DNA of 64,000 nt from the IMG/VR virus record IMGVR_UViG_3300042569_002633. The stretch is one strand, 5' to 3'. How positions within the stretch are numbered: position 1 is the first letter of the stretch; each line of letters begins with the position of its first letter. The position numbers and the translations under genes were made by a program. This document shows, one piece after another, positions 4,440 to 57,024 of this stretch. This stretch comes from an uncultured virus (IMG/VR IMGVR_UViG_3300042569_002633). Lineage: Duplodnaviria; Heunggongvirae; Uroviricota; Caudoviricetes. The notes beneath the pieces are model-generated. The model searched no databases. It was not told the DNA's origin and saw only the letters and a program-made list of their open reading frames with translations.

Positions 4440-6224
4440 TTATGTATTTCTAGTAACTGTAACGTTCACATTAGGATTTGACTGTACGCTGGTTACACTA
4501 CTAACCCGATCACCACCTTGAGTTATGAAGAATCTTCGATCCCTCAGCTGAAGTATGGTGCCAGATATAGAATCGTCCATTCTGAAAGCTACCTCACCCT
4601 TAGATGGGTTAGCTAGATTTTTGTCCTGTAAAGAAGCAACGTACAGTTTCTTTCCGGTGTTATCTATAAACACCATCTTATAATTACTAGTGTCACCTAG
4701 ATCTATCTCAACAGGAGCACCATCGGATCCGCTCTTATACATCTTGAACTTATAGTAGTTGTCAAATGGTGTTACATCTACAACCAATCTACCAGAAGGC
4801 TGCGCAATGTTTGGTGCAGCAGACGTATCGTTCTGTATAGATCCATCACGGATAATAAGAGGGATGTTTGTAGTTGATATGTTGCTGTAGTTAATAAAAA
4901 GATTATTCGTTCTAACTACCTCTGTTGGAGTTGGATTTGATTGTCCAGGAATATTAAGTGCCGCTTGATTATAGACCTTGTTATAGATCTTCATAACCTG
5001 CGGAAAAGTATTTAGCTGTATTGGGGAAATATTTGGACCCCATTGACCCGGATTATTCGACGTATATGTTCCAATTCTAACCACACGTGAATTATCAACA
5101 GTGTTTACGAGAGACATTGTGTATCTGAGGGTGAAGCTTGCAGCCACCGCAGAATTTCTAACTATAGGTCGATAGAAATTAGGAACGTCATACCCCGTTG
5201 TCTGTATTGTCTGGAAAGTATTTGTAGTAATAATCGCAACACCAATTTGTTCTAGTGTTTCTATTTGGTGATTGATGTAGTAATTATTTCCTATTGAATT
5301 TTGGAAAAGTATAAAATCCTCTACAAATCCCTCATTGTCTGTTGCAAAATATTCAAAAAATTGTCCCGAAGTAGATTCCTTAATAACAGCTCCTATATTA
5401 GAAAAAGGATCCTCACTCTCTAGTGAGAGAGCGGAAATTAATTCAGAATCGTATCTCTCGTATCCTAGATAATCAGATTTGCTAACTACACTCCAAACCT
5501 CTATCCTAATGGGAGAAGCGTATACGTATCCCCTTCCACTTTGACTGGTTAGAGCTGCAAGTGTTTGGCTTTTGAAAGAGGAAGCAGCCGCCTGATATTT
5601 ATTGTTCATATCAACCAAACTAGGAACTTTCACCTCGAGATATCTATCATAGATATTAGCCCCTATCTTAAGTGGACTAGGGTTAAGAGTATAAGATTGC
5701 TGAGTCCCCTTCTGTATAAGTGCTTGTGAGAATGTCACAAATGTTTGATTGACGTCCTGATATTTTACACTTAAGATAACACCATCTATATTAGATAGGT
5801 TATAGCCGGCAACTATATGGTATCTTATAGAATCATAGACAACCTCTATGTTACCAGGAAACGTAATTTCCAATTCGTTAGTTGGAGTTAGCTCATCAGA
5901 GAAATCGTTGAATGGTATGATCAATCCGGGATCTAATGTAACAAAGGAGTTGGTCGAGATCTGTACAACGCTATTCTCACCAGTGTTGTGTGTCACTGGA
6001 TAATTAGAATCCAGGTTATAGATCTGGTTAGTTGGAACTATAGACGAGTTATTTACAATGGCTGTAATGTATCCATTCACCATCTTATTGTATCCCACCG
6101 TTACAGTGCCTGTGTTTACTGGATACGTCTCAGGATTTGGTTGATCCGCATACATCCACTCCATTAGTAGGTATGGTGTAAGCTGAACGAATTTAGATGT
6201 TGTACTATAAGCCACTTTAATCAA
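4440..6224 (-). CDS. hypothetical virion structural protein (start possibly GTG 6215)
   Basis: 594-aa beta-rich ORF in the tail/baseplate region. Confidence 0.6.
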   Translation of the reverse strand: MIKVAYSTTSKFVQLTPYLLMEWMYADQPNPETYPVNTGTVTVGYNKMVNGYITAIVNNSSIVPTNQIYNLDSNYPVTHNTGENSVVQISTNSFVTLDPGLIIPFNDFSDELTPTNELEITFPGNIEVVYDSIRYHIVAGYNLSNIDGVILSVKYQDVNQTFVTFSQALIQKGTQQSYTLNPSPLKIGANIYDRYLEVKVPSLVDMNNKYQAAASSFKSQTLAALTSQSGRGYVYASPIRIEVWSVVSKSDYLGYERYDSELISALSLESEDPFSNIGAVIKESTSGQFFEYFATDNEGFVEDFILFQNSIGNNYYINHQIETLEQIGVAIITTNTFQTIQTTGYDVPNFYRPIVRNSAVAASFTLRYTMSLVNTVDNSRVVRIGTYTSNNPGQWGPNISPIQLNTFPQVMKIYNKVYNQAALNIPGQSNPTPTEVVRTNNLFINYSNISTTNIPLIIRDGSIQNDTSAAPNIAQPSGRLVVDVTPFDNYYKFKMYKSGSDGAPVEIDLGDTSNYKMVFIDNTGKKLYVASLQDKNLANPSKGEVAFRMDDSISGTILQLRDRRFFITQGGDRVSSVTSVQSNPNVNVTVTRNT

Positions 6225-29785: not shown

Positions 29786-32700
29786 TCAACTTCTGTACGG
29801 TGGGGTTGTACCGGTTGATGCAGACACAGCAAAAATATTTTCTGATGTGTTAGCAAGATCCGATGTGTTAGCTAATGTGGACGAGTCTATCCCAGGAGGC
29901 ATAACTGTATAGTAGAAGTCAGTAATATAGTCATCACTAGAGTTATTAAGCTGGTCAGCAACTTCCTGAAGTGTTAATGTGCTAGGTGAAGAAGCTGTAA
30001 ATGTTACACCAACGGGAGCTGGATAAAGCTCAGTTGCAGTGCTTAATTTTAGATGATCACCATCTGTTGCGGTGTGTATCTCGAATCCGCCTAGCCATTC
30101 ACCATTATAGGCGAAATCTTCCCAAGAGTGTGCATAGGCATCAACCCATTGACTCTCCTCGAATATCTGCCAATCTAGATTTTTAACACCCCAATATTTT
30201 AGATTAGCATTAGGGTACGTCTCAGAAGTTTCATTCCAATATGTATAACCATAATAAGATCCGGTTCCTCCGCTGAGTGATGCAGAAGAACTAGGAACAG
30301 ATATAGATCCAGTAACAACCGTTGTTAAAACGGACCCGTTAAACTGAGCACCCGTTATATCAGGAGCCTGTATCGTAACTATATTTGTAGCACCAATTGG
30401 ATCTGGAGACGAAGCATAGTAATCCGGATACGTAACCAGCTGATTTACAGAGGCAACTAAGCTGTTTGTAGTCTTATAAAGATTATCGCCATTTGTTGTT
30501 TCACCAATTAGTCTATTGTCAATATAGACTTTAATCGACCCAGGCGTAGCAATTGTTTCGTTGCCATTTAAAGTAACCGAGTTCTCGCTCGATGAATAAA
30601 CCACACCAGACATAGACGTATCTAGAGTAAGAGATATGGAAAAAACTGTAGTACTGAATATCTCCTGCACCTGCCAGTTTCCATTAACCTCCGGTGTATC
30701 CGAGTTACATATCCAAACATAGTCTCCAAGCAAAAGTCCATGAGCAGCAGAGGTTGTAATTTCAGCGAATCCGAATGTTCCTGGATAAGATGGCGAATCC
30801 GGAGAAGCTATGGAGGTTGGAGTTAATATCGATTGTGATAGTTCTAAATATCCGGTTGCTCCTATAGGATCTGAATATGCTCCTACATATAAGCTCTGAC
30901 CTTCCTCGACATTATTACCGTAAGTTGCATAAGCAAGCATCTGAGCTGGCATTTCTTTATTCAGCTCTTGGTAAGTCATTCCCTCAGCAGGATACTCCCA
31001 TATCGACTGATAAAGCTCCCATGGCTTGTATACTTGCTCCCAGTCATAATACTCTACTTCTCTATATCTTGTCCATGCATCAATATCAATGGTAGACGGA
31101 GCAACCTCAATCAGGTTATTCTTGATTACATTTGTTTTTGCATTAAATCCATCATAAACGTTACAGATGACCTTATATTTTCCAGCGTAAGACAGGAAGT
31201 GTGAAAATTTATAATAACCTAGGATATTCCCTCTAAATTCATAATAATAGGGTAAACCCGGTTCTGTTGGTAGCTTCTGTATGATCCACTCGATCTCAAA
31301 CATGTTCGAGAAATCTATATTAGCCCATGTTAGCATTAGATATTCCTGTATCGGAGAAACCAAAAGCTCGCCTCCTACCGTTACAGATCCACCCACATCC
31401 TTCAACAAGGTATATTCGCCAGTTGCGTAGTTGATTGATGTTACAGTTCCGTAATATCCACCAGTTAAACCAAAAGTAAGGAAATCCTGATATTGTCTAA
31501 CTAATGCATAGTCACCCACACTAAATAAAGGAAGTGTCAGAGAGCTCCAACTCATACTCATCTCGCTCCAAAGCCATATATCGGTTAGCAATTCAAGAAC
31601 AACTGGCATACCCAGTGGGTTCTGATATGGCTGTCCACTTATTGGATCAACTAGAGGATTTGGGTCCTGTATGCCATCACCAAGCTTTTTTAGATTACCG
31701 TTCTCCTTCTGTTGATACCAATTGGATATGGCCTGAACCATAGCTACATTCTCTGCGGCAGATCTAGTTTGCAGATAATAAAGAGGATCCGAAATGTTTC
31801 CAAAATCCGAGCTAAGAGAAGGCAAAACAGAGATGGTGCCATTTATAAAAGCAGGGTTAACCGTGGAGTAGTAATACACAGTAGTAACCTCTTGTGGATT
31901 TACATACCATTCTAGAGGAGTAGCACCTGTCGTACCATTTCCGGTAACCCCCAATGGATCAGTTTGTGTCGGGTATGGAGTAGTGCTCAGATAAAAATCA
32001 TAATCACCAACCTGTACAGACTGCAGATTAGCAGTAAGATTGAAATTATATTGCTTGCCTGCATAAACTTGCAAAGTCTGATTTCCGCCTGTTGCTGGGA
32101 TTCCTTCGAAATATAGAGCACCTCCGGAAGATCCAGTAGCACCATATAATTCAACGTTAACACTAACCAAATCCCCGTAATTTTCTGGAGTTTGTAATGT
32201 AGTTGAATAAGGTCTGGTTGAAAAAGCTCTTAGATCCTCAATAAATCCAAAATCTGGATTGGCTACTATATCAAGGTAAAATCCAGATTGTATATCGGAT
32301 CTGACCATAGAATCCGTCCAAGCTTTGGTGTTGTAAACCGTAAAGTAAATACCTTCACCACAGATATCTACTATTCTTGCATTCAAAGGAAGATATGTTG
32401 CTTTAAGTCTTTCTTTAAGAGCAAAAAGTTTAATTAAAACCTCTTCCTGTGTGAAGGTAAATGAGTCAACAACAACAGGATATCCATAAACATCAACATC
32501 TGTTGTTTGCTTGTTAAGATCGTAATAAAGACCGAATAACGAAGTCTTTTTATAGGTTCTACTAGGAACTAAAGTAGACTCAGAAGAGACATCGAGAACG
32601 TAAGTTCCATCCGGACCTGGTCCATATGTCTGCTCTAATCTATATTTTCCTTTGTTAGCATTATCTAAAACGTCGCTAATCAGAACACTCTGACTATAGG

Positions 32701-34948
32701 CTCCACCATTTTGATACTGATACTGTGCTAGGAAAGCATTATTCTGTAAAAGAGGAGATACCCTTTCAACCGAGTTGTATGCGAGATTAAGCCAATATTC
32801 TTTGATTCTCAAATCCTGATAGCCAAAGAATTTCAATGCATTTATCAATCCCTTATAGGCACCTATATAGTTGTATATTTGATCGCCGGCAAATAAAAGT
32901 TCCTTTCTTTTCTCGTTAATCTCTAAGAAGTTAGGTAGGGGTTCTTTTGGATCGCTATCACGTAAAATATTAGCATCCTGTGCATAGAAAGTTCTGCCTA
33001 AATTCTGAAGCATCACATTGAATCTCTCGTCCTCCCCAACAACCTCACCGTAAAAATCAACTACCAAAATCTTCTCTGGTGTTCCAGATGAAAGATCCTC
33101 TACTATCAATTTTCTCTGATAAACATCAGCATAAAGATCGGTTGCATTTAAAGCAACATTTATAGGGAGGGCTTCCGAATGCGCAGGTCCAGTAGATCCG
33201 CTTATCAGATATCCATTTGAATAATAATCGTCTACGTTATAATCTACAGGTATTGCTATATTAGGATAAGATACGATAAGGGGATATTGTTCACCACCCG
33301 TTCCCCCAGCTCCTTCCACTATTTTATAGGTGAATATAATCTCGGAAACGTCCACGTCACCGTAGTTGTCGCTCTCCCACCTAGTTCTCCATAGCGAAGG
33401 ACCGGCAGCTCCCGTAGATCCCGCTCTAGGATAAAGGTACTGAAGCTCTATATCTATATTAGCAGATATAACGGTCTCACTCGAGCCGCCAGCAAATCCA
33501 TAGTTAGATGAAGATGGATCTGCATATACCGTGAGTAGATCTGAAGAAGTTGGTGATGGTTGTTGTAACCAAGAAAACCCTCCATTTTTGGTTCTGAGTA
33601 TAATTCCGCCATCACCAACTATGAACCCGTTCATGCTGTCCCAGAAATAAACATCGAATAGATCTACGGATACCCCAGTATCTAGAGCGGACCACGATTG
33701 ACCAAAGTCACCGGTTGTTATTAAGACTCCGCCTGTTCCAACAGCAAATCCCTTACCATTAGGTAGCAAAAATCCTCTTATGAAATTCGATGATGCAGGG
33801 CTGGTAGCAGCTGTCCAGGTTGATCCGGAGTCGCTAGAAAAATACAGTATAGAATTCTCGCCTACTATAAATCCATTTCCACTCTGGAAAACAACGTCAC
33901 GTAGTCCAGAAGTTGAAGCCGGTGATATATCGGTCCAGTTGTCACCGCTGTCTGTAGATCTCCAGATAACACTAGCTAGTGATGTTCCACCCCCAGTAGG
34001 ATCAGAGCTACTATAAAGACGTCCGACGGAGATAGCAACTCCACCTCCGGATTGATCCGTAAAGGCTACGCCTCTCATATCGTTCTTCTGTCCTCCTGGT
34101 ATAGCGGGCATGGAACTGGCTGCAGAAACAGTAGGTGAAACACTTGATCCTGTACCTCTAAATATCCTATTAGCCGAGCTCAATGTACTTAGCAAGAACA
34201 CAGAGGAGGACCCGGATAACCCATTCCAACCTAATCCATATACAATTTGGCTTGATATTGATATTGGGGTGAAGCTCTGCCCGCCATCGGTTGAATATCT
34301 AAAAAGTCCAGAACCGCCAGCTCTACCAGCCACAAGAACAGTTTCGCTACCTGTAAACACTGATCTAATGTAAGAATTTAAGCTGGATCCGCTAGAAACG
34401 CTGCTCCACGTTTCCGCTTCCGTTGAAAGTCCATATCCTTCTTCTACTACAAATATCTGCTGGTTTTCGTAAAGACCGGCTGAAACTTGATCGAAATATA
34501 TGTTACCAGTAAAATAACCGCCAGGTCTATATGCGTAGTTAGTTGTAACCTTTATATTTTTTCCGGTTGAAACTATAACAAGTCCATTTACTTGAGAAAA
34601 GACAACGGTAATGGAACTGCCCCCCACTGTTACGCTAGAAACCCTACCTCTGAATTGATTTTCTGGTAGGATGTCAAGGGTTATATCAACCTCCGCACCT
34701 CTGTCTAGAAAGTAACTTAATTCATTGGCCCATCCTGTGATATTAAATCCGTTAGTATCCTGTATGTTAAATACCAAAGTAGAGGTGTTGTCTAGATTGC
34801 TTACGTCCAGCTGCCCCCTAGAATTCGATGTGGATGAGCTAACATATAGTAGCTTGAAATCAAGAGGGGTTGGTCCAGTTGGCCCAACGTAAGCAAAGTT
34901 GAGCGGATTGCCCGATTTATTAAAGAACTTTAACTTACTGTCTGCCAT
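29786..34948 (-). CDS. large baseplate wedge-associated protein (gp7-like position) with inserted BNR/Ycf48-like propeller
   Basis: 1720 aa downstream of the gp6-like gene; YIGAYKGLINALKFFGY wedge-type motif; Asp-box repeats STDGGQSF, STDSGDNW, SSDSGSTW, TKNGGFSW. Confidence 0.6.
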   Translation of the reverse strand: MADSKLKFFNKSGNPLNFAYVGPTGPTPLDFKLLYVSSSTSNSRGQLDVSNLDNTSTLVFNIQDTNGFNITGWANELSYFLDRGAEVDITLDILPENQFRGRVSSVTVGGSSITVVFSQVNGLVIVSTGKNIKVTTNYAYRPGGYFTGNIYFDQVSAGLYENQQIFVVEEGYGLSTEAETWSSVSSGSSLNSYIRSVFTGSETVLVAGRAGGSGLFRYSTDGGQSFTPISISSQIVYGLGWNGLSGSSSVFLLSTLSSANRIFRGTGSSVSPTVSAASSMPAIPGGQKNDMRGVAFTDQSGGGVAISVGRLYSSSDPTGGGTSLASVIWRSTDSGDNWTDISPASTSGLRDVVFQSGNGFIVGENSILYFSSDSGSTWTAATSPASSNFIRGFLLPNGKGFAVGTGGVLITTGDFGQSWSALDTGVSVDLFDVYFWDSMNGFIVGDGGIILRTKNGGFSWLQQPSPTSSDLLTVYADPSSSNYGFAGGSSETVISANIDIELQYLYPRAGSTGAAGPSLWRTRWESDNYGDVDVSEIIFTYKIVEGAGGTGGEQYPLIVSYPNIAIPVDYNVDDYYSNGYLISGSTGPAHSEALPINVALNATDLYADVYQRKLIVEDLSSGTPEKILVVDFYGEVVGEDERFNVMLQNLGRTFYAQDANILRDSDPKEPLPNFLEINEKRKELLFAGDQIYNYIGAYKGLINALKFFGYQDLRIKEYWLNLAYNSVERVSPLLQNNAFLAQYQYQNGGAYSQSVLISDVLDNANKGKYRLEQTYGPGPDGTYVLDVSSESTLVPSRTYKKTSLFGLYYDLNKQTTDVDVYGYPVVVDSFTFTQEEVLIKLFALKERLKATYLPLNARIVDICGEGIYFTVYNTKAWTDSMVRSDIQSGFYLDIVANPDFGFIEDLRAFSTRPYSTTLQTPENYGDLVSVNVELYGATGSSGGALYFEGIPATGGNQTLQVYAGKQYNFNLTANLQSVQVGDYDFYLSTTPYPTQTDPLGVTGNGTTGATPLEWYVNPQEVTTVYYYSTVNPAFINGTISVLPSLSSDFGNISDPLYYLQTRSAAENVAMVQAISNWYQQKENGNLKKLGDGIQDPNPLVDPISGQPYQNPLGMPVVLELLTDIWLWSEMSMSWSSLTLPLFSVGDYALVRQYQDFLTFGLTGGYYGTVTSINYATGEYTLLKDVGGSVTVGGELLVSPIQEYLMLTWANIDFSNMFEIEWIIQKLPTEPGLPYYYEFRGNILGYYKFSHFLSYAGKYKVICNVYDGFNAKTNVIKNNLIEVAPSTIDIDAWTRYREVEYYDWEQVYKPWELYQSIWEYPAEGMTYQELNKEMPAQMLAYATYGNNVEEGQSLYVGAYSDPIGATGYLELSQSILTPTSIASPDSPSYPGTFGFAEITTSAAHGLLLGDYVWICNSDTPEVNGNWQVQEIFSTTVFSISLTLDTSMSGVVYSSSENSVTLNGNETIATPGSIKVYIDNRLIGETTNGDNLYKTTNSLVASVNQLVTYPDYYASSPDPIGATNIVTIQAPDITGAQFNGSVLTTVVTGSISVPSSSASLSGGTGSYYGYTYWNETSETYPNANLKYWGVKNLDWQIFEESQWVDAYAHSWEDFAYNGEWLGGFEIHTATDGDHLKLSTATELYPAPVGVTFTASSPSTLTLQEVADQLNNSSDDYITDFYYTVMPPGIDSSTLANTSDLANTSENIFAVSASTGTTPPYRS

Positions 34949-38501: not shown

Positions 38502-39908
38502 TTAATAATTCATATCGCCAAATTTGGCTCCTTTATATTTATCGTTTAGGTCCTGAAGTCTTTTATCAGTTATGAATCTTTCATTTCTAACTTCGTTCCA
38601 TCCCTTGACTTTTTTAGTGTCCTTACTCAGTTCAGCATACTCCCCAAGTATACCTGCTCTTAGCACTCCGCCAGCAATCTCGCAATTGATAGATTTTTGT
38701 TCGCAGTTTATGTAGCAGTCCTTAAGCTTGTTGGTAGGTTCAACAGAGCATGCTTCTATTCTAGAATTAAGAACATCTGTACCTCTTACTAGGTAGCATT
38801 CATCTAGATTTGATTTGTTAATCTTAGAATCGTATATGTTGCACTTCTTTAAATAAGAACCCTTTATATCGCAATCGATCACATCGAAATCGTAGATCTC
38901 AAAAGAATTTCTAGACCTTGCACCTTTAAGTTGGCATCTCCCTGTGGATGTGTCATAATTAAAAAAGCAATCTGTTATACCGCCTTCTATAACAAGATCA
39001 AATACCTTATCCCTGATTGCAGGGAAATATGTTCTTAGGTTACCGTCAAATCCCTTGAGGTCTATAAATACCTTGAAGTCGGGATAATATCTAAGAAAAA
39101 GTTCAGGCTTAGAGAAGCATTTTACAACATTAGCATAATCCTTCATCATTGATTTTAGCTTATCTAGGTCCTCCTTACTATAGCCTCCCATTCTTTTGCT
39201 AACTATATCATAGAGATACAGAATGGTATATTCAACAACCTCTCTGATTGGCTCTATCTTTTTCTGATAATCCTTACCACCTAAATACCTGAACTCCAAA
39301 TATCCATCAGGAGCCTTTGTGAAATTCACACCATAGTACTTGTCACTAGGTGTCTTAAACATCATTGGGTCTATAGTGCTAATATTCTCCAATATCATGT
39401 ATCTACTTCTGGGTAAAACCCTTTTTATAGATTTAGCATAGACATTCTTTGTTCTGTTACCAAACTTAGAATAAATGAAATTCTCGTCAATACCAAGGAT
39501 GAACTTTAAATGATCCATCGTTTGTATCGCATTTTTAAGATTGGCCCTCTCGGGGTTAAAACTAACTGAGAATTGGAAAGCGCATTTATCACTTGTCCAT
39601 CCATTTTCGTCTATCCATTTTAGGACCTTGATCATAACAGGTATAGCCTCGTTATAACTCATTGGGCCAGTAACAAGTTCTAACATACTTATACCGCCCG
39701 AGTAATCCGGCTCTAACTTGAATCTCTCCCTGTTAACCGGTATATCCGAGTGGTATTTATTAGATACATCTACTTTTTTACCGAGAAGTTTCGAAAGAGC
39801 ATCAGCAGCTCTTCCTTTGGTAACATTGGAAAAGAATTCAAATTCAAACCCAACATCAGACAAAGAAAGGGCCTGAGCTTTTTCAAAATGGTTTCTATTA
39901 TCCTTCAT
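38502..39908 (-). CDS. putative amidoligase (COOH-NH2 ligase type 2) with a C-terminal beta-helix-like repeat
   Basis: GFEFE, EPDYS, ELVTGP, KYYGVNF and YLEFR motifs; the usual HxH is replaced by QFS. Confidence 0.7.
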   Translation of the reverse strand: MKDNRNHFEKAQALSLSDVGFEFEFFSNVTKGRAADALSKLLGKKVDVSNKYHSDIPVNRERFKLEPDYSGGISMLELVTGPMSYNEAIPVMIKVLKWIDENGWTSDKCAFQFSVSFNPERANLKNAIQTMDHLKFILGIDENFIYSKFGNRTKNVYAKSIKRVLPRSRYMILENISTIDPMMFKTPSDKYYGVNFTKAPDGYLEFRYLGGKDYQKKIEPIREVVEYTILYLYDIVSKRMGGYSKEDLDKLKSMMKDYANVVKCFSKPELFLRYYPDFKVFIDLKGFDGNLRTYFPAIRDKVFDLVIEGGITDCFFNYDTSTGRCQLKGARSRNSFEIYDFDVIDCDIKGSYLKKCNIYDSKINKSNLDECYLVRGTDVLNSRIEACSVEPTNKLKDCYINCEQKSINCEIAGGVLRAGILGEYAELSKDTKKVKGWNEVRNERFITDKRLQDLNDKYKGAKFGDMNY

Positions 39909-41067
39909 TTATGGATTTAGCAAATATTTTTCCTGTGTGAACGTCTATCTTCCATATTAATATTTCAATAGGATCACCAGTCTTAGCATTTCTATCGCCT
40001 TTACCCAAATGCTCGGAACTTATAAATGCCATTAGACCAATATCGCTTATCTCTATAAGCACTCCATTTTTTCTTTTGTGCTTAATGAGAGCTTGCATTG
40101 GCTCTATTGTGCCTTCCTCGACACGAGTCTCAATATCATAAAGGATTACGTTTCTTTCTAAGGGTCTATCTAGTGTTAGAGTCAATTTATTGTTCTCTTT
40201 AATCTCCTTCACATAGAATTCTATCTCGTCACCTGAACAAAGTTTGGACAATTCATCGTCACTCTCGAACTCGCTCTTATGGATCAAGCCAGTATAGATC
40301 TCCTCCCACTCAACAAAAACTCCAAATGGGCTTGTTCCAGTGATGGAGCCTTTATATTTCCTGGTTAGATCAAGCTCTTGAATCTTCTGCTCCATAATCT
40401 TGGAAATATACTTCTTGTAAGAAACAATGAAGGTATCTTTTGCCTCTATATAGCCTTCCATCATTACGTGTATATCCTTTCCAATATAAGATTCGAAATC
40501 CTTGATCTTATTAGCTGCAGCCAAGGATCCAGGCATGAAACACTTAATACCACAAAGATCGACAATATATCCACCTTTATTTATGCTTTCAACCCTTACT
40601 TTATAAGCTGTAGTTTCTTTTTTGATTTGATCGAAAAGTTCAGACTTTAGGGTCTTTATATAATGCTCAACAACAGATCCAAGATATCCCTTAGGAGTTT
40701 TTCTAACATGAGCTTCTATTCTACTACCTACTGTAAAATCAATACCCTCGATATTTAATTTTTCAGCATCCCTTCTTTCCTTCTTCAGGTCGATATAAAT
40801 TGTTTGTCCTGAGTCAGTCTGGGCAAAAGCCTCTTCTTCAGTTAAAGCAACAATTTTACAAGGGTACATCCTGCCATCAACTAGATCCTTAGCTAGATCA
40901 TTCCAATCTAGTCCTTCAGAATGCTTAGCGTATGCCGCAGCGAGTTCTTCAGCATAATCAGCATGACAATAAATAGTCATCCCGTGATTATTCTTAATTT
41001 TTTTATTAGGCTTAAATCCGTTTGAATTTTCCCAACTGAATTCTTCATTTTCGAATTCTTGATACAT
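39898..41067 (-). CDS. rpsA: ribosomal protein S1 homolog (about four S1/OB domains)
   Basis: VESINKGGYIVDLCGIKCFMPGSL and GSITGTSPFGVFVEWEEIYTGLIHKSE are S1 repeats. ATG 41067 preferred. Confidence 0.8.
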   Translation of the reverse strand: MYQEFENEEFSWENSNGFKPNKKIKNNHGMTIYCHADYAEELAAAYAKHSEGLDWNDLAKDLVDGRMYPCKIVALTEEEAFAQTDSGQTIYIDLKKERRDAEKLNIEGIDFTVGSRIEAHVRKTPKGYLGSVVEHYIKTLKSELFDQIKKETTAYKVRVESINKGGYIVDLCGIKCFMPGSLAAANKIKDFESYIGKDIHVMMEGYIEAKDTFIVSYKKYISKIMEQKIQELDLTRKYKGSITGTSPFGVFVEWEEIYTGLIHKSEFESDDELSKLCSGDEIEFYVKEIKENNKLTLTLDRPLERNVILYDIETRVEEGTIEPMQALIKHKRKNGVLIEISDIGLMAFISSEHLGKGDRNAKTGDPIEILIWKIDVHTGKIFAKSINEG

Positions 41068-41105
41068 CAATTTTAGTTTTAAATGGTTAATATTAGTTTC
41101 TTATG

Positions 41106-41126: not shown

Positions 41127-43055
41127 TTAAAATACAAGCAAAACAAATCCAGGGGTCGGAACGGTTGCAGGTCCTGCCTGAGTCGATCCAGTATATAAAA
41201 ACTTCAAAGAAAGCAAATGTAATGCAAAAGAAACTGCGAGTTTAGTTGAAACCGCTTTAGAAACTAGATTTTGGCTCTTTGTTGCTTCTAGCAAGGCCTT
41301 CTGTGATTCTATAAGGGAAAGAAGAGCTTTAAATTCTTCAGATTCGATAGAATTGGAAAGCGAAGCTGCTTTTTCTACAAGCCCATTTGGATCTAATTCA
41401 GGATTAAAGACGGGATTCAATCCTGCATTAAAAGACAGTCTCAATTTATTAGCAAGCGTAAACGGAAGACCTGGAAAAATTATAGTAAAAAGTCCAGGCG
41501 CTGGTATGCTAGCAGGAAGTACCGGCGGATTGGCTGCAAAGCAAGTAGGAACCAATCCCAATATAGTCCAATATAGGACCACACTAGATGACATAACTAG
41601 ATAAGGATCGCTCTTAGACATAAGATCAGCTATCTTAGCATCCAATCCGAAATTTATCAACTTTTGTTGGAAGTCAGCGGACAGAGATCCTAGTACACCA
41701 TTAATTGAATCTTTTGCGCTTTTTACAGCATCCTGCTCCTGTACAGCAGCGGACGGATAAATTGGCCCGCCAGGAGGAAATCTATATGACTCGTTTTGAC
41801 TTTCGGCTGGGTAACCATTCTGTCCAAAAACTTTATTTATAGTGAATCTTTCCTGAGATCTACTAGATAAATCAGTTACCACTACGCTTAAATCCTCAGA
41901 TCCATTTAATGTAAACCTTATGTCAATTACCGGTGTACCAGCAAGGCCATATTGTATGTTATTAAGGGTAACGTCCCGTAATACAGAAACATCGCTTCCC
42001 GCTTTTATTGCAATTTTAAATTGGACCTCCTTCTGAAAATCACCTACTGTAGTCACGGATCGAGAACTAACGGTAGGAAAAACAGAATTCTCTTCTATTA
42101 TAGATATAAAATTTTCACCGTCCGAGGATATTCCTAGAGAAGAAGGAGTTGTCTTGGCTGAGTCGGAAAATGTCTCATCTGATGCATTTGCCAAACTCTT
42201 AGAAATATAAGGTGTTATTATCTCTATCCATTTCTGTAGTTCTGTAGAATAAAGACTTAGAAATATATTATCTATATCGTTTCTAACTGCCTGGGTTCCA
42301 CTGTCTGATCCCGTGTTTGCTCTTACCGCTTGATCCAATCTATCCTTTCTATCGTCATTTAGAGTTTTTACAAGATAGCTATATAGGTCATTAAAGGTTA
42401 AAGCTCCAATACCCCTAGAATTTATCTCATCCTGAGCATCCTCTTTCGCATCCTCCCTATCGTATGTTAATATCGTATTGATACCGGGGAGAAATCCGTA
42501 CCTAGCTATACCGCTCTTAGCTTTTTGTAATGTGTTACCAAATATAGAAACCTTCGTATTACCTATGTTATTAAAATCTACTTTAGCTTTATAGTTAAAT
42601 ATCTTGGTTGATTCTTTGCCGTCCGTCTCATGTAGGAAAAAATTCCAAGTACCATTTTTTCTAATATCCTCAAGATCGTCCTGGGATACTAGATTAAATA
42701 TATCGTCTATGGATTGATCCTGAACCTGAGGCTGTTCTTTAAAAGCCTTTTGCTCCTCCTCGGAAGGTATGGGGCTGGACCCATCGAAATATTTCTCGTC
42801 TCCCTGTAACTGTTTGAAAGTTTTCTGTGAGTTCTGTAGAAGAAAAAAGCCAAGTCCAAATCCAAGATCTAATATAGGCTTGAAGCTCTGTGCTAAATTA
42901 CCATTTAAAGCATTTCCTGCGGGAATAGCCTTAGCACCTTTTATGGTATTAACATAATATTCAGATAGTTTTTTGCCGGTCTGAAAGGGACCGCTAGATT
43001 GGTTAGAAGATAAAAAGTTAGAAAAATCCGTTATAAATTGCTGCCAATTAGCCAT
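41127..43055 (-). CDS. baseplate-region protein containing an Hsp70 substrate-binding (SBD-beta) domain
   Basis: 642 aa directly after the spike gene; internal TTPSSLGI...GTPVIDIRFTLNGSEDLSVVVTDLSSRSQERFTI aligns by eye with the DnaK SBD. Confidence 0.65.
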   Translation of the reverse strand: MANWQQFITDFSNFLSSNQSSGPFQTGKKLSEYYVNTIKGAKAIPAGNALNGNLAQSFKPILDLGFGLGFFLLQNSQKTFKQLQGDEKYFDGSSPIPSEEEQKAFKEQPQVQDQSIDDIFNLVSQDDLEDIRKNGTWNFFLHETDGKESTKIFNYKAKVDFNNIGNTKVSIFGNTLQKAKSGIARYGFLPGINTILTYDREDAKEDAQDEINSRGIGALTFNDLYSYLVKTLNDDRKDRLDQAVRANTGSDSGTQAVRNDIDNIFLSLYSTELQKWIEIITPYISKSLANASDETFSDSAKTTPSSLGISSDGENFISIIEENSVFPTVSSRSVTTVGDFQKEVQFKIAIKAGSDVSVLRDVTLNNIQYGLAGTPVIDIRFTLNGSEDLSVVVTDLSSRSQERFTINKVFGQNGYPAESQNESYRFPPGGPIYPSAAVQEQDAVKSAKDSINGVLGSLSADFQQKLINFGLDAKIADLMSKSDPYLVMSSSVVLYWTILGLVPTCFAANPPVLPASIPAPGLFTIIFPGLPFTLANKLRLSFNAGLNPVFNPELDPNGLVEKAASLSNSIESEEFKALLSLIESQKALLEATKSQNLVSKAVSTKLAVSFALHLLSLKFLYTGSTQAGPATVPTPGFVLLVF

Positions 43056-43057
43056 CC

Positions 43058-43738
43058 TTACCTAGTTTTAGTGATGAAACTCAATTGAGCTGTTGTCATC
43101 GGTGAAGCAGGAGGGGAGGATGGTCCTGCTGGTGTAGCATGTGTGTGCTGATTAAAGAAGCTTAAAAATGTATCACCAAGTATAACCTTTTCCAATGTAC
43201 TAGTACCGCTACCTAGTTCTATATTTCCAGATTCTATGATAACTTTGCTATTCTCCATTCTAATCTCATCGTCACCCATTTTTACAACCACCCTAAGCTG
43301 ACCACCATTCTGTGTGTCCAGTTGTATTTTTGCATTATCTAATTCAAAAACAACACCATCCTTATACGTATAGTACATATGCAAAGGACCTGGTTTTGCC
43401 TCGGAATCATATATTAAATAGTTTGCACCAGTGTAACAGTTATCCTCCTGCATCTTATCCAAAAGATCACTAGATATCTCCTTAATGTAGTGATAGGTAA
43501 TCTTATAGTAATTATTCTCCTCGAAGTGAACCGCTACAACAGCTCCCAATCTAGGTATAGTCAGGTTACCCCCTCCGCCACCTCCGCCAAAAGATAATCC
43601 AGCGATTTGTTCTGCCCAAGGGAGATCCTCTACTGCAACATCATCGAAAAATCCAAAAGCACGGATTTTTGCCCTAGCCTCTTTTAGAGGATCATCTATG
43701 TCTACTATTATCCCCAGTAGGGTTCTTTCACTTGGCAT
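43058..43738 (-). CDS. gp5: baseplate central spike (gp5 OB-fold / P2 gpV-like)
   Basis: GIIVDIDDP...RAKIR...LPWA...IPRLGAVVAVHF OB-fold and a C-terminal HTH (His-x-His) metal-binding tip; no lysozyme domain. Confidence 0.8.
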   Translation of the reverse strand: MPSERTLLGIIVDIDDPLKEARAKIRAFGFFDDVAVEDLPWAEQIAGLSFGGGGGGGNLTIPRLGAVVAVHFEENNYYKITYHYIKEISSDLLDKMQEDNCYTGANYLIYDSEAKPGPLHMYYTYKDGVVFELDNAKIQLDTQNGGQLRVVVKMGDDEIRMENSKVIIESGNIELGSGTSTLEKVILGDTFLSFFNQHTHATPAGPSSPPASPMTTAQLSFITKTR

Positions 43739-43740
43739 AG

Positions 43741-46155
43741 TTACATTTCAAAATCAGACTCTGGTGAATTAAAGTCACCTAAGCTTATATTATACTTATC
43801 AACAGGCTTCAAGTTTCCTAGAGTTAGATCCTTCTGTGATATAATTTTCTCCAAAACAAAATCCTCTACAGTTTTAGGATAAACCCTACCTATCGCATTA
43901 TCATTAGGTGCCTGTAAATTACCGATACCAGAATAAACATCACCAATTGAATTTGGTGAATTTGTCGCAGGTGGGACCGGAGGATAAACATCTCCAATTG
44001 AATTTGGTGCATTTGTCGCAGGTGGAACTGGTGGATAAACGTCATAGGATCCTAAATCACTATTAGCATTCGGAACATTAGGTGGATATACTTTTTCATT
44101 GATATCCGATTCTCTTGTCCCCAAGTTTGGTGGATAAACTTCCTCCCTAAAAGGAGGATATAGCCTATCTGGAACACCTAAATCAGCTCCCGGAACATCA
44201 GAATAAACATCATCTCTTAACGATGGACTATATAGACGTCCAGGAACACCCAAATCCTCACCAGGTACTCCATTATATGCATCACCCTCAGCTGGCGGAT
44301 AGACTCTACCAGGACCACCTAAATCTTTTCCGGGTACATCAGGATAGAAGTCGCCATCCGAAGGTGGGTATACTCTATCAGGACCACCTAAATCCTCGCC
44401 TGGTACTTTATCATAAACGTCGCTGTCCACTACGGGATAAACCCTATCAGGTACTCCTAAATCAGGTCCAGGAACGTTGTTGTATGAATCAGATCCTCCA
44501 GTTGCATCTGGATAAACCCTATCTGGTACACCAAGATCTCTTCCTGGTACATTACGATAAACATCGCTTTGCCCGCCTACCTCAGTCGGATACACCCTGC
44601 TAATTGTCTCGTTAGTGCTGACGCCAAGATCCTGTCCAGGAACCCTTCTGTAAACGTCACCTTCACCTGAGTTAGAGGGAGGACCATATACTCTATCGGG
44701 AGGTCCACCGAATCCAGTTGTCTGAGGGTTCGGTAAAGGTCGATCCAGATTTCTTAGACTAAGTTCTGAATTAGTAACCTGATCTAAGAAATTTTGGGCA
44801 GAGTTATAACTCAGATCGCTAAGAATCTGTGATGGATTCAGGGAGTAAATATTACCCAATAGAGTCTGATCCAGTCCGGAAAGAGCTGGATTTAGGTACT
44901 CTGCAACACCCTCGTTTATAAAATCATCTACTGTGTTGCTCAGAAAGTTAGTTAAAAGCTCTCCTGCTATACCTAAAGCCCCACCTGTTGTTGTTGGATC
45001 CTGCATAACAGAACTCTTTGATTGATCCCACCCGTCCGATAGTACAAGAGGGTTTTGATCACTTCTAATATTCGGAAATTGATACTTGGTTCTCACCCTT
45101 CCGACATGTACTTTGAAATTATACCCGATAGGTGTAGCAGACTCAGTCCCAGCATTTATCGATGTAGGCACAGATGTGGAATCATCAAAATCAAACTCGC
45201 AATTACTGCACTCTATTATCAACATAGGTTTTATCCCCGATTGATCACTCTGATTTCTAAATAAACTAAGATCACCGTCAAGACCAGAGTTATCTATAAC
45301 ATTACCGAGTAAGCCACCAAAAGCACTGGGGGTCTGAGAGGGATCAGATCCATAGGACTGATTAAAAGAATTAGCGGTATCAGCCGAATTTGTAGACCCG
45401 GGATTGTTGTTATTACCCACCAGGCTGGATAGGTTGCTTATCGTAGTTAAAGCTGCAGAAGATGCAATAAGTCTAGATGTTTTAAAGAAATTTCTTATCT
45501 CCGTAACAAATATGTACATCTTGAATCTTCTCAAGTTTCTAGGAACGGTTTCCCTCATGTAATCAGCATCGAATGTTGCTTGTTTATACATTTCTCCCAG
45601 AGCTGTCATTCTCTGATTTAAAGATTCGAGACAGTTAAATACTAGCGGTTTACCGGAGGTTCTTGATGGGTTAAAGCCGGTTTCTGCACCACCGATGTAT
45701 CCAGTTCTAGCCACTTTAACTAGAGCATCTAATCCATCTATAGATTGCAGGAACCAGGGATAATTGTCCAGTAGATCCTTAAGAGAAACTGAAAATTGAT
45801 TCAACATATCAGCTCTTTTACCACCAGACCCGTTGAAGAATTGGCTTTCTCTTTGCCTTAGATAACCCTGTGCGGAGTAAAAGGACACATTCTGACTTCC
45901 TTTAACGGAGTAAGCTGGCTGCCCGAATGGATTTGAACTGAAAAATCCGCTATTACCGGATTGGAATGAATAATTATCCTTTCTAAAAAGAGGACTAGGC
46001 GGTTGGCCAAACTCGGCATCGATAGGAAGATTTCCGAAGTCTATCACAACCTTAAACCCAAGGTATGTAGGGTCTTCGAATTTGCCCTGTTCTGATAGCT
46101 TAAATCCTTTTAGAAATAAACTCCTGAGTTGATCTGTTGTTCCCGGCCAAGCCAT
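43741..46155 (-). CDS. baseplate hub-region protein with a Pro-rich tandem repeat tail
   Basis: 804 aa between hub and spike genes; C-terminal DxYxxVPGxDLGxPxRxY repeats. Confidence 0.6.
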   Translation of the reverse strand: MAWPGTTDQLRSLFLKGFKLSEQGKFEDPTYLGFKVVIDFGNLPIDAEFGQPPSPLFRKDNYSFQSGNSGFFSSNPFGQPAYSVKGSQNVSFYSAQGYLRQRESQFFNGSGGKRADMLNQFSVSLKDLLDNYPWFLQSIDGLDALVKVARTGYIGGAETGFNPSRTSGKPLVFNCLESLNQRMTALGEMYKQATFDADYMRETVPRNLRRFKMYIFVTEIRNFFKTSRLIASSAALTTISNLSSLVGNNNNPGSTNSADTANSFNQSYGSDPSQTPSAFGGLLGNVIDNSGLDGDLSLFRNQSDQSGIKPMLIIECSNCEFDFDDSTSVPTSINAGTESATPIGYNFKVHVGRVRTKYQFPNIRSDQNPLVLSDGWDQSKSSVMQDPTTTGGALGIAGELLTNFLSNTVDDFINEGVAEYLNPALSGLDQTLLGNIYSLNPSQILSDLSYNSAQNFLDQVTNSELSLRNLDRPLPNPQTTGFGGPPDRVYGPPSNSGEGDVYRRVPGQDLGVSTNETISRVYPTEVGGQSDVYRNVPGRDLGVPDRVYPDATGGSDSYNNVPGPDLGVPDRVYPVVDSDVYDKVPGEDLGGPDRVYPPSDGDFYPDVPGKDLGGPGRVYPPAEGDAYNGVPGEDLGVPGRLYSPSLRDDVYSDVPGADLGVPDRLYPPFREEVYPPNLGTRESDINEKVYPPNVPNANSDLGSYDVYPPVPPATNAPNSIGDVYPPVPPATNSPNSIGDVYSGIGNLQAPNDNAIGRVYPKTVEDFVLEKIISQKDLTLGNLKPVDKYNISLGDFNSPESDFEM
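43933..44700. repeat. intragenic tandem repeats
   Basis: A near-identical 51-bp duplication (43933-43983 / 43984-44034) plus seven degenerate units of about 23-30 codons encoding DxYxxVPGxDLG. Confidence 0.85.
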
Positions 46156-55614: not shown

Positions 55615-57024
55615 TTACATTTCAGAAAGAAAAAGATCTATTGCCTTCTGTCTATATGCTATTTTATCTTCCTTGATCTGTGGGTTCTTTAGAGGTATTT
55701 TCTTTCTCCCCACTATCTCGGGTGGCAGGATGGGAGAAAAAGTATCTTTTAGTATCTTCTTATCCTTTCTCCACTCGAGAGGCAAATGTAGTGCAAATCT
55801 CACTATGTCAAGATTTAAAAATGGGGTTCTTAGCTCCAGTGTATGAGCCATGCTCATCTTGTCCAGCCGTGGCAGGTGATAATAAGAAAGTTCTTCAAAA
55901 ACATCAGACTTTTGAGAATCAAATTCGTGTATTCTTGAATATCCACCAAACAATTCATCAGAGCCGTCGCCACTTATAACTATTCTGTATCCGGTCTGTT
56001 CTTTGACAGCTTTAAACAAATGATACTGTGGTATAACAGAACCAAGATCGACCGGTCCTTCGTTCCATATTTTATAGATTTCCTTATTTAAGGATTCGTC
56101 CATATCGTATGTTAGCTTATTGATCTTGATATCAAGGTGTTTAGCTAGAAGGTCGGCATATTCAGTTTCACCATTCTCTATTGTGAACCAGTTTATTCTA
56201 TCAATAGATTCAGATTTCATTAATGCTGCGATAATAGAAGAATCGAGTCCGCCTGATATTAATGCGGATATTGGGTAATTCTTACTAAGTAATCTATTCT
56301 TAACACTTTCCACCATTTTATCCCATAGCCAGTCCATGTGCTCCTCGTATGATTTACCTCGAAGCTCGTAAATAGGGGAGTCAAATCCCTCCCAGTATTT
56401 TTGATAAACCTGTTGGAACATAGGAGATACTATGTTAAAAGAATAGATGTTATTAGGAAGGATTCTTTTTATTTCCTTATAAGGCGTTCTATTGTCAGTG
56501 TTATAACCCCACTTTCTAACGCTAGAAATATAAGTATCGTCTATGGAATATCCCTGGCGATGCACACCTTTTATCTCCGAGGATATCTCACCTTCTTTAT
56601 TAACATATAGACATTTTTTACCCAATGGGTCAGTAAAGCAAATAACATCTCCTGTTTTTGAATCATATATGACAATAGCCCAAAAACCATCCCATGTTTG
56701 CATGTGTGGAAGAAAGAGAGCTGAAAACATTTCAACACCACCAAAACTATAGGAGCTAAAAAGATTGCAAAGATATTCTATATCAGAGGAATATGCGCTA
56801 GTATCATAGTTGAAAATCTCGCCATTAAAAAGCATATAAATACCATCTGATATTTGTTTTGGCTGATACCAATTATCGCCTTCCACTGTTTGGATAGGTA
56901 ATCTATGGTGGCATAGCGTAACACCTTCTAATTTTTTATCGGTTCTTTCAATTCCTCTATGAGAGATAGAATTTAATATCTCCTCCGTTGAGTTAAATTC
57001 AGTTGCTAGTATTATTCCGCACAT
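55615..57024 (-). CDS. asnB: asparagine synthetase B-like glutamine amidotransferase
   Basis: N-terminal MCGI (Ntn Cys), HRG, HHRL, FNGEIFNY, DPLGKK, SGGLDSS, SGDGSDELFGGY, ELRTPFL. Confidence 0.9.
   Translation of the reverse strand: MCGIILATEFNSTEEILNSISHRGIERTDKKLEGVTLCHHRLPIQTVEGDNWYQPKQISDGIYMLFNGEIFNYDTSAYSSDIEYLCNLFSSYSFGGVEMFSALFLPHMQTWDGFWAIVIYDSKTGDVICFTDPLGKKCLYVNKEGEISSEIKGVHRQGYSIDDTYISSVRKWGYNTDNRTPYKEIKRILPNNIYSFNIVSPMFQQVYQKYWEGFDSPIYELRGKSYEEHMDWLWDKMVESVKNRLLSKNYPISALISGGLDSSIIAALMKSESIDRINWFTIENGETEYADLLAKHLDIKINKLTYDMDESLNKEIYKIWNEGPVDLGSVIPQYHLFKAVKEQTGYRIVISGDGSDELFGGYSRIHEFDSQKSDVFEELSYYHLPRLDKMSMAHTLELRTPFLNLDIVRFALHLPLEWRKDKKILKDTFSPILPPEIVGRKKIPLKNPQIKEDKIAYRQKAIDLFLSEM

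Follow-up and report, generated by a model that had tools for sequence, protein, structure and literature searches.

An Hsp70 substrate-binding β-domain embedded in a spike-adjacent protein of a large myophage: a possible tethered peptide clamp

Why would a phage protein encoded beside the central spike carry the peptide-binding part of an Hsp70 chaperone? This question is raised by a 642-aa open reading frame (P0001; 41127..43055, minus strand) of an uncultured virus, located in the 64,000-nt stretch of DNA that was analyzed as a whole and is termed here the window. The content of the window is that of a structural module of a large myophage, with genes for the major capsid protein (Gp23), a head-tail adaptor, gp25- and gp6-like wedge proteins, tail-fibre proteins and the spike, and its main ORFs are on the minus strand for all except one. 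A first-pass annotation of the DNA had placed the 642-aa ORF straight after the spike gene; this was confirmed, as P0001 was found to start 3 nt past the end of the 226-aa spike gene. The central spike gene (43058..43738, minus strand), which lies directly upstream, encodes an OB-fold with an HxH motif near the C-terminus and was matched by PHROG 430 (E 5.8e-13) and, below the cut-off, by Pfam Phage_base_V (E 0.0027). The downstream neighbour (39898..41070, minus strand) encodes an S1-domain protein (Pfam S1, E 3.9e-15).

P0001 consists of a conserved core that is split by insertions, with all parts on the minus strand. The N-terminal half of the core (residues 1-78; 42822..43055), which is matched in distant family members, is followed by a variable, mostly helical insert (residues 79-299; 42159..42821) common to P0022, a relative that lacks the Hsp70 domain. 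The substrate-binding β-domain (SBD-β) occupies residues 300-411 (41823..42158), and a Pro/Gly linker with three helices (residues 412-480; 41616..41822) leads from it back to the C-terminal part of the core (residues 481-546 and 597-642, interrupted by a second variable loop at 547-596; 41130..41615). No membrane-spanning stretch was detected in P0001 by hydropathy.

The identity of the inserted domain was established by profile search, alignment and predicted fold. Pfam HSP70 matched residues 302-410 with 27.3 bits compared to a curated cut-off of 20.6 (E 1.4e-6), which bears out the initial assignment of an Hsp70 SBD-β to this ORF; the span noted at that time, 41838-42152, corresponds to residues 302-406, the Pfam match reaches 41826, and the peptide that had been quoted is present in P0001. 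When the PDB was searched by phmmer, the best 60 of the 71 sequences retrieved (E≤10) were all Hsp70-family chains or their SBDs, with a best E of 2.1e-8. Alignment of the segment to the E. coli SBD scored 28.3 bits, and the top of 1000 shuffles scored 10.0. The full-length AlphaFold model of P0001 was poor (mean pLDDT 52.3, 15 sequences); its SBD region was a β-sandwich with block pLDDT of 56-78. By Foldseek, this modelled domain retrieved Hsp70/DnaK SBD entries at E about 2e-9, and its comparison to the Kar2 SBD gave a VIA Z of 16.0 and an rmsd of 2.4 Å over 117 residues. In a Foldseek-independent search of 48,161 chains, an unnamed chain ranked first (Z 13.1), ranks 2-7 were Hsp70-family (Z 7.4-12.2), and the first clearly unrelated fold of the wide search was PRMT10 (Z 6.8). 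In the predicted model, the domain is a two-sheet β-sandwich superposable on the DnaK/BiP SBD and not the ordinary Ig/baseplate sandwich that the first-pass annotation had named as the alternative to be checked by AlphaFold and Foldseek. Identity to Hsp70s is only about 26-33%, a level that would be compatible with chance similarity or with an assembly chimera; both were ruled out by the shuffle control, by the fold match and because 17 homologs of varied provenance and a family of 9 metagenome loci have this architecture too, and we consider the probability of either to be negligible. The P0001 segment belongs to the Hsp70 SBD-β family.

The peptide-binding domain of Hsp70 normally operates only together with an ATPase domain and a lid, and SBDs devoid of a lid bind peptide weakly and quickly. 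That neither an ATPase domain nor a helical lid accompanies the phage domain, as had been noted from the letters alone, was borne out. The Pfam HSP70 match spans only positions 389-500 of the 599-position model. Comparison of E. coli DnaK to the six frames of the window gave a match confined to DnaK residues 394-508, i.e., the SBD segment, with no nucleotide-binding domain (NBD) encoded. When lid homology was sought in the helices after the domain, the hhalign probability was 0.26% compared to 0.16-0.18% for controls, and a lid HMM run over 17 family proteins gave a best score of 3.6 bits. A lid remnant downstream of the domain was rejected, the hhalign score being at control level; a surrogate lid without homology to the Hsp70 lid could nonetheless be present. 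P0001 has no NBD, no SBD-α lid and neither of the clamp residues K414 and D481 (E. coli DnaK numbering), and as a whole it is no Hsp70 chaperone. A cycling chaperone role is unlikely because these three features are absent.

P0001 has 17 close homologs of 60-97% identity, and a precomputed PF00012 hit is present in 15 of them. Exhaustive search returned 86 representatives, which were Hsp70s matching the SBD only and a family of proteins matching residues 1 to about 95 and about 472 to 642 around an unrelated middle. An HSP70 hit was detected in two of the 41 distant family members scanned (P0020 and P0021), and P0023 is a fragment whose sequence stops at the expected start of the SBD. Family members range from 197 to 773 aa with a variable middle, the 197-aa member being the core alone. 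For 15 close homologs, all-pairs identity was 87% in the N-terminal core (range for the core, 79-87%), 64% in the helical insert and 71% in the SBD. Three SBD-less members (P0028, P0029 and P0037) have a β-rich insert in the same loop that appears Ig-like by eye and has no Pfam hit. P0110, in which an N-terminal piece of the family is linked to a Hydrolase_2 domain, comes from a single contig and is probably an assembly chimera.

The core was modelled with confidence in P0027, a 297-aa member (pLDDT 85.5, pTM 0.76). Comparison of this model to the PDB gave no Foldseek match at E≤0.001 and a top VIA Z of 4.8. The model weakly matched two phage proteins that are uncharacterised, one of 207 aa (E 0.035) and one of 182 aa (E 0.048). 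In the Atlas, viral hypothetical clusters of 153-188 aa were recovered at 0.93 for the core, a match that is considered weak because its recognition score was low. A missing structure match does not prove that the fold is new. From the predicted secondary structure, the core might be composed of three helix-helix-hairpin units with insertions between both helices of each unit; this stays an idea because hhalign profile comparison found neither an internal three-fold repeat nor likeness to PAU gp262 (probabilities ≤3.3%). Among family and structure matches of the core (PHROG/Pfam, Foldseek and VIA), none names a virion component, and no PAAR entry appeared in the Pfam and fold searches, a result with which membership in that family is still compatible. 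No copy of the core was detected in genomes of bacteria or archaea, or beside the spike of pT24, PAU, Lak-C1 and three other large phages; whole-record search of five of these large phages gave three weak matches, all to the variable middle. No credible match to P0001, P0059 or P0046 was detected by tblastn against 50,697 phage records, and a locus search with P0020, P0021 and P0025 found no loci.

The gene neighbourhood of the family was found to be fixed with respect to the spike. In 51 of the 52 SBD-less loci (37 distinct proteins, many of them nearly identical), the family gene is preceded by the spike gene at a distance of 3-84 nt, and the remaining locus is truncated where its contig stops. 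An S1-domain gene is directly downstream in 48 of the 52. The spike is likewise directly upstream in 9 of the 9 SBD-clade loci compared. By its gene position, P0001 may be a baseplate or virion component. On its other side, the S1-domain gene is flanked by an amidoligase-like gene. The S1-domain gene is also found in L025, from a large phage with the same synteny, in which an unrelated hydrophobic 424-aa gene (4748-6022) occupies the slot of the family. An HxH motif is present in all 51 spikes of the SBD-less loci. The spike of the window carries the motif as well, and HxH-motif spikes were proposed to need no tip protein (PMC12407873). The RB43 orf205w and PAAR spike-tip proteins treated in that source resemble the P0001 family in having a gene that adjoins the spike and in being a monomeric partner able to carry extra domains. 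By contrast, no match of the phage core to PAAR appeared in the sequence and fold searches.

The gene upstream of the spike encodes an 804-aa protein (43741-46155), which in the SBD clade has a tail of 7-11 proline-rich repeats (43744..44745, minus strand, in the window). SBD-less relatives of this gene encode about 400 aa, with a single similar short motif at the end. The repeat tail was present in 6 of 6 SBD-clade loci compared to 0 of 14 SBD-less loci checked. Repeat tail and SBD lie within one clade and are therefore counted as one event, not as a correlation.

The history of the insertion was reconstructed from a core-only tree (195 columns, 52 rows, midpoint-rooted). The 11 SBD-bearing rows of the 52 formed one clade (UFBoot 100) nested among SBD-less rows, sister to P0022 (99) and then to P0025-P0027 (99). 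Since the SBD rows form a single nested clade, a single gain is the simplest reading, and the comparison of orthologs proposed in the first-pass annotation thereby resolves the SBD as a lineage-specific insertion of one subclade. Three SBD sublineages display 24-33% mutual identity, about equal to the identity of each with Hsp70s, and it is for this low identity that the gain is judged to be old. In a tree of SBD sequences, for which 21 of 52 rows were selected, the inserted SBDs fell on one side of a weakly supported branch (77/68). Identity comparison, this tree and an approximately unbiased (AU) test did not resolve the donor.

Genes for a complete DnaK and for DnaJ are present in a related genome, G002, and origin of the insert from the phage's own DnaK was considered and discarded: the AU test rejects joining the inserted SBDs to the G002 DnaK (p-AU 0.007, with long branches). 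Bacteroidota were nearest to this DnaK in all of the best 80 of 320 rows, a weak hint at a Bacteroidota host. Jumbo phages with DnaJ or DnaK are known (PMC7824862 and PMC12619734). The moraphages of PMC12619734 are large, come from aquatic environments, have both chaperone genes and are predicted to infect Bacteroidota; G002 resembles them in its DnaJ and its Bacteroidota-like DnaK, a likeness of shared traits only. In the passages on these phages, genes for DnaK are described and no fusion of an SBD to a structural-module protein. A group I intron interrupts the full-length dnaK of G002 (L021 5407-5796; G002:C1 about 119400-119800; RF00028, 50.6 bits compared to a cut-off of 50), and no ORF of 80 aa was found in it.

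The presence of chaperone genes in G002 bears on a possible role of P0001 inside the infected cell: it may be a cytoplasmic holdase, or it may be a decoy to which clients or cofactors of the host DnaK bind, and substrates might be passed on to the phage's own DnaK/DnaJ. G002 has both genes and an HSP70 match was found in 0 of 5 SBD-less genomes searched, and P419, a J-domain contact, is invariant in the phage domains. One genome against five is no association, however, and P419 is, to our knowledge, also invariant in all Hsp70s, which counts against this reading. The nearest record to the window (G001, 27% complete) has only the P0001-type HSP70 match and no DnaJ. With the gene fixed in the baseplate module and the inserted SBDs kept apart from the G002 DnaK by the AU test, we regard a cytoplasmic role as improbable; the decoy for DnaK clients, which was among the functions first suggested, finds no support in these data.

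Selection on the domain was estimated by dN/dS. Among close relatives, values for the SBD were 0.11-0.18 in pairs with estimable dS (pooled, 0.147; five sequences), compared to 0.037-0.098 for other parts of the gene, with the second loop alone exceeding the SBD (0.164). The SBD is under purifying selection, though it is not the most constrained part, and no sign of diversifying selection was detected in it.

Groove residues were compared to E. coli DnaK in 16 phage sequences, which are partly redundant. G400, I401, P419, T/S427, T428, Q433, P470, I472 and D490 were kept in 16 of 16, and I401, T/S427, T428, Q433, P419, P470 and I472 in all 7 representatives picked across the three sublineages, through which D431 also persists. 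Other positions were found to be altered, with V436 replaced by A in 13 of 16 sequences (a change recurring in all three sublineages), F426 by V/L/I in 15, I438 by F in 14, the arch residue M404 by D/N in 14, and R467 by A in 15; A429 is also changed, K414 is E/T and D481 is S/T in all 16, and loop L4,5 is shorter by three residues in 14. Roles of M404, A429, V436, I438, K414, N415, D481, V440 and L484 are given in PMC8215388, in which K414 and D481 are clamp residues, P419 is a J-domain contact and V436F lowers affinity 40-fold. When sets of positions were compared to 10,000 random sets in the 7 representatives, NBD-contact positions were found to decay beyond expectation (2.3% of sets as low), the peptide-contact set was not significantly better kept (12.3% as high), and lid contacts were average. 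These contact sets were picked after the alignment had been seen, and their positions beyond the published residues are ones that we take to be contacts.

This pattern is open to two readings. The domain could be a stable, non-binding β-sandwich kept as a spacer or as a protein-protein surface: the F426V, I438F and M404D substitutions fall in the pocket and arch, peptide contacts are not significantly conserved, and the domain is dispensable in most of the family. The changes at F426, I438 (to F) and M404 (to D/N) could close or spoil the groove, and the invariant T427, T428 and Q433 may serve fold stability. Against a spacer, T427, T428 and Q433 together with D431 persist across three sublineages of 24-33% identity, and V436A, found in all three, puts a smaller side chain at a pocket position. 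The SBD of P0020 is flanked by long Gly/Ala/Thr-rich linkers, and such flexible linkers would suit a tethered binder better than a spacer. We judge the spacer to be rather unlikely. The same retained residues and the V436A change would favor instead a peptide clamp that works without ATP and is tethered to a protein associated with the spike, a proposal that we hold tentatively and that falls a little short of an even chance. The nested single clade, the purifying selection, the stronger decay of NBD contacts, the loss of K414 and D481, the P0020 linkers and the gene position next to the spike also speak for it. Most family members are without the SBD (HSP70 hit in 2 of 41 distant members and in 0 of 52 loci), which counts against it, as do the dN/dS of the SBD, higher than in most other parts of the gene, the outcome for the peptide-contact set, the lack of a match that would link the core to the virion, and the HxH motif of the spike.

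According to the clamp proposal, P0001 would be the family's spike-associated partner, with a small conserved core and a surface loop that tolerates large lineage-specific inserts, and one subclade would have gained the Hsp70 SBD-β in that loop. Since the NBD and lid are absent, the SBD could not cycle; it would hold an extended peptide in its groove through backbone hydrogen bonds, at low affinity, with the pocket re-shaped for a fixed ligand. The likeliest ligand would be a segment from among the tail or baseplate proteins of the phage itself, bound as a latch or held during assembly, and the proline-rich repeat tail encoded upstream of the spike is a candidate. Peptide binding, the ligand, spike association and presence of the SBD protein in the virion are all inferred here.

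Comparison to known systems places the phage domain closest to the Hsp70/DnaK SBD-β itself (PF00012 positions 389-500; PDB 3h0x, 1dkz and 3n8e), with homologous sequence, the same β-sandwich and the groove residues I401, T428, Q433 and I472 in common. It differs from Hsp70/DnaK by the absence of NBD, interdomain linker and lid, by the loss of K414, D481 and R467, by the shortened loop L4,5 and the V436A/F426V/I438F pocket, and by being embedded in an unrelated phage protein. The closest working model for a lidless SBD-β is Ssz1 of the ribosome-associated complex, which cannot cycle and whose built-in substrate is a proline-rich motif held with low affinity (PMC7083937). Ssz1 is eukaryotic and cytosolic and keeps an NBD, completed by Zuo1 strands, whereas the phage domain has only a candidate ligand. 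The closterovirus Hsp70h is an integral component of the virion tail (PMC3622897); it is a complete Hsp70 homolog and belongs to a plant RNA virus, compared to a lone domain embedded in a phage protein that may be a virion component.

A clamp at the spike might also face the host. As a spike-region appendage, the domain would grip exposed host surface or periplasmic peptides during adsorption or penetration. The insert loop is hypervariable (197-773 aa among members), as host-facing parts tend to be; the Ig-like-looking inserts of other members occupy the same site, and one Hoc-like PHROG hit (E 0.0029) was obtained among the family inserts. RB43 also has a spike-adjacent product of roughly 690 aa at the spike tip (PMC12407873). 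This role appears unlikely to us, as diversifying selection was not detected in the SBD, peptide binding by a groove without a lid is weak (PMC7083937), and the place of P0001 on the virion is putative. A broader scheme, in which a monomeric pseudo-three-fold core docks on the HxH spike and shows swappable cargo, here an ATP-free virion clamp on amplified proline-rich repeats or on host envelope proteins, is speculative and would be similarly unlikely.

The SBD-β fold and family are already known, and stand-alone Hsp70-domain clusters of 139-154 aa occur in bacteria (an Atlas lead at 0.80). The fusion into a spike-adjacent phage protein was not found described in the mostly open-access literature searched on phage Hsp70/SBD, baseplates and jumbo phages. 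If the clamp proposal is true, P0001 would hold a naturally selected stand-alone SBD in a phage tail module, showing that the groove can take on a second use as a passive clamp adjusted to a fixed ligand, and the lone phage domain would be a small, easily expressed test of the abilities of a lidless SBD. The family itself is widespread, uncharacterised and spike-adjacent, with a core that is confidently modelled without a structure match and a loop that takes variable cargo.

Additional genes were observed in the window and in related loci. One branch has, immediately upstream of the spike, another spike-like gene (L067 1786-3135), which combines an OB-fold with a GH19 glycoside hydrolase in a single fusion. 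The window also encodes a 1720-aa baseplate-region protein (29786-34948) into which a BNR/YCF48-like propeller is inserted (Pfam PSII_BNR, E 2.1e-12) and, at 55615-57024, a gene resembling asparagine synthase (glutamine-hydrolysing).
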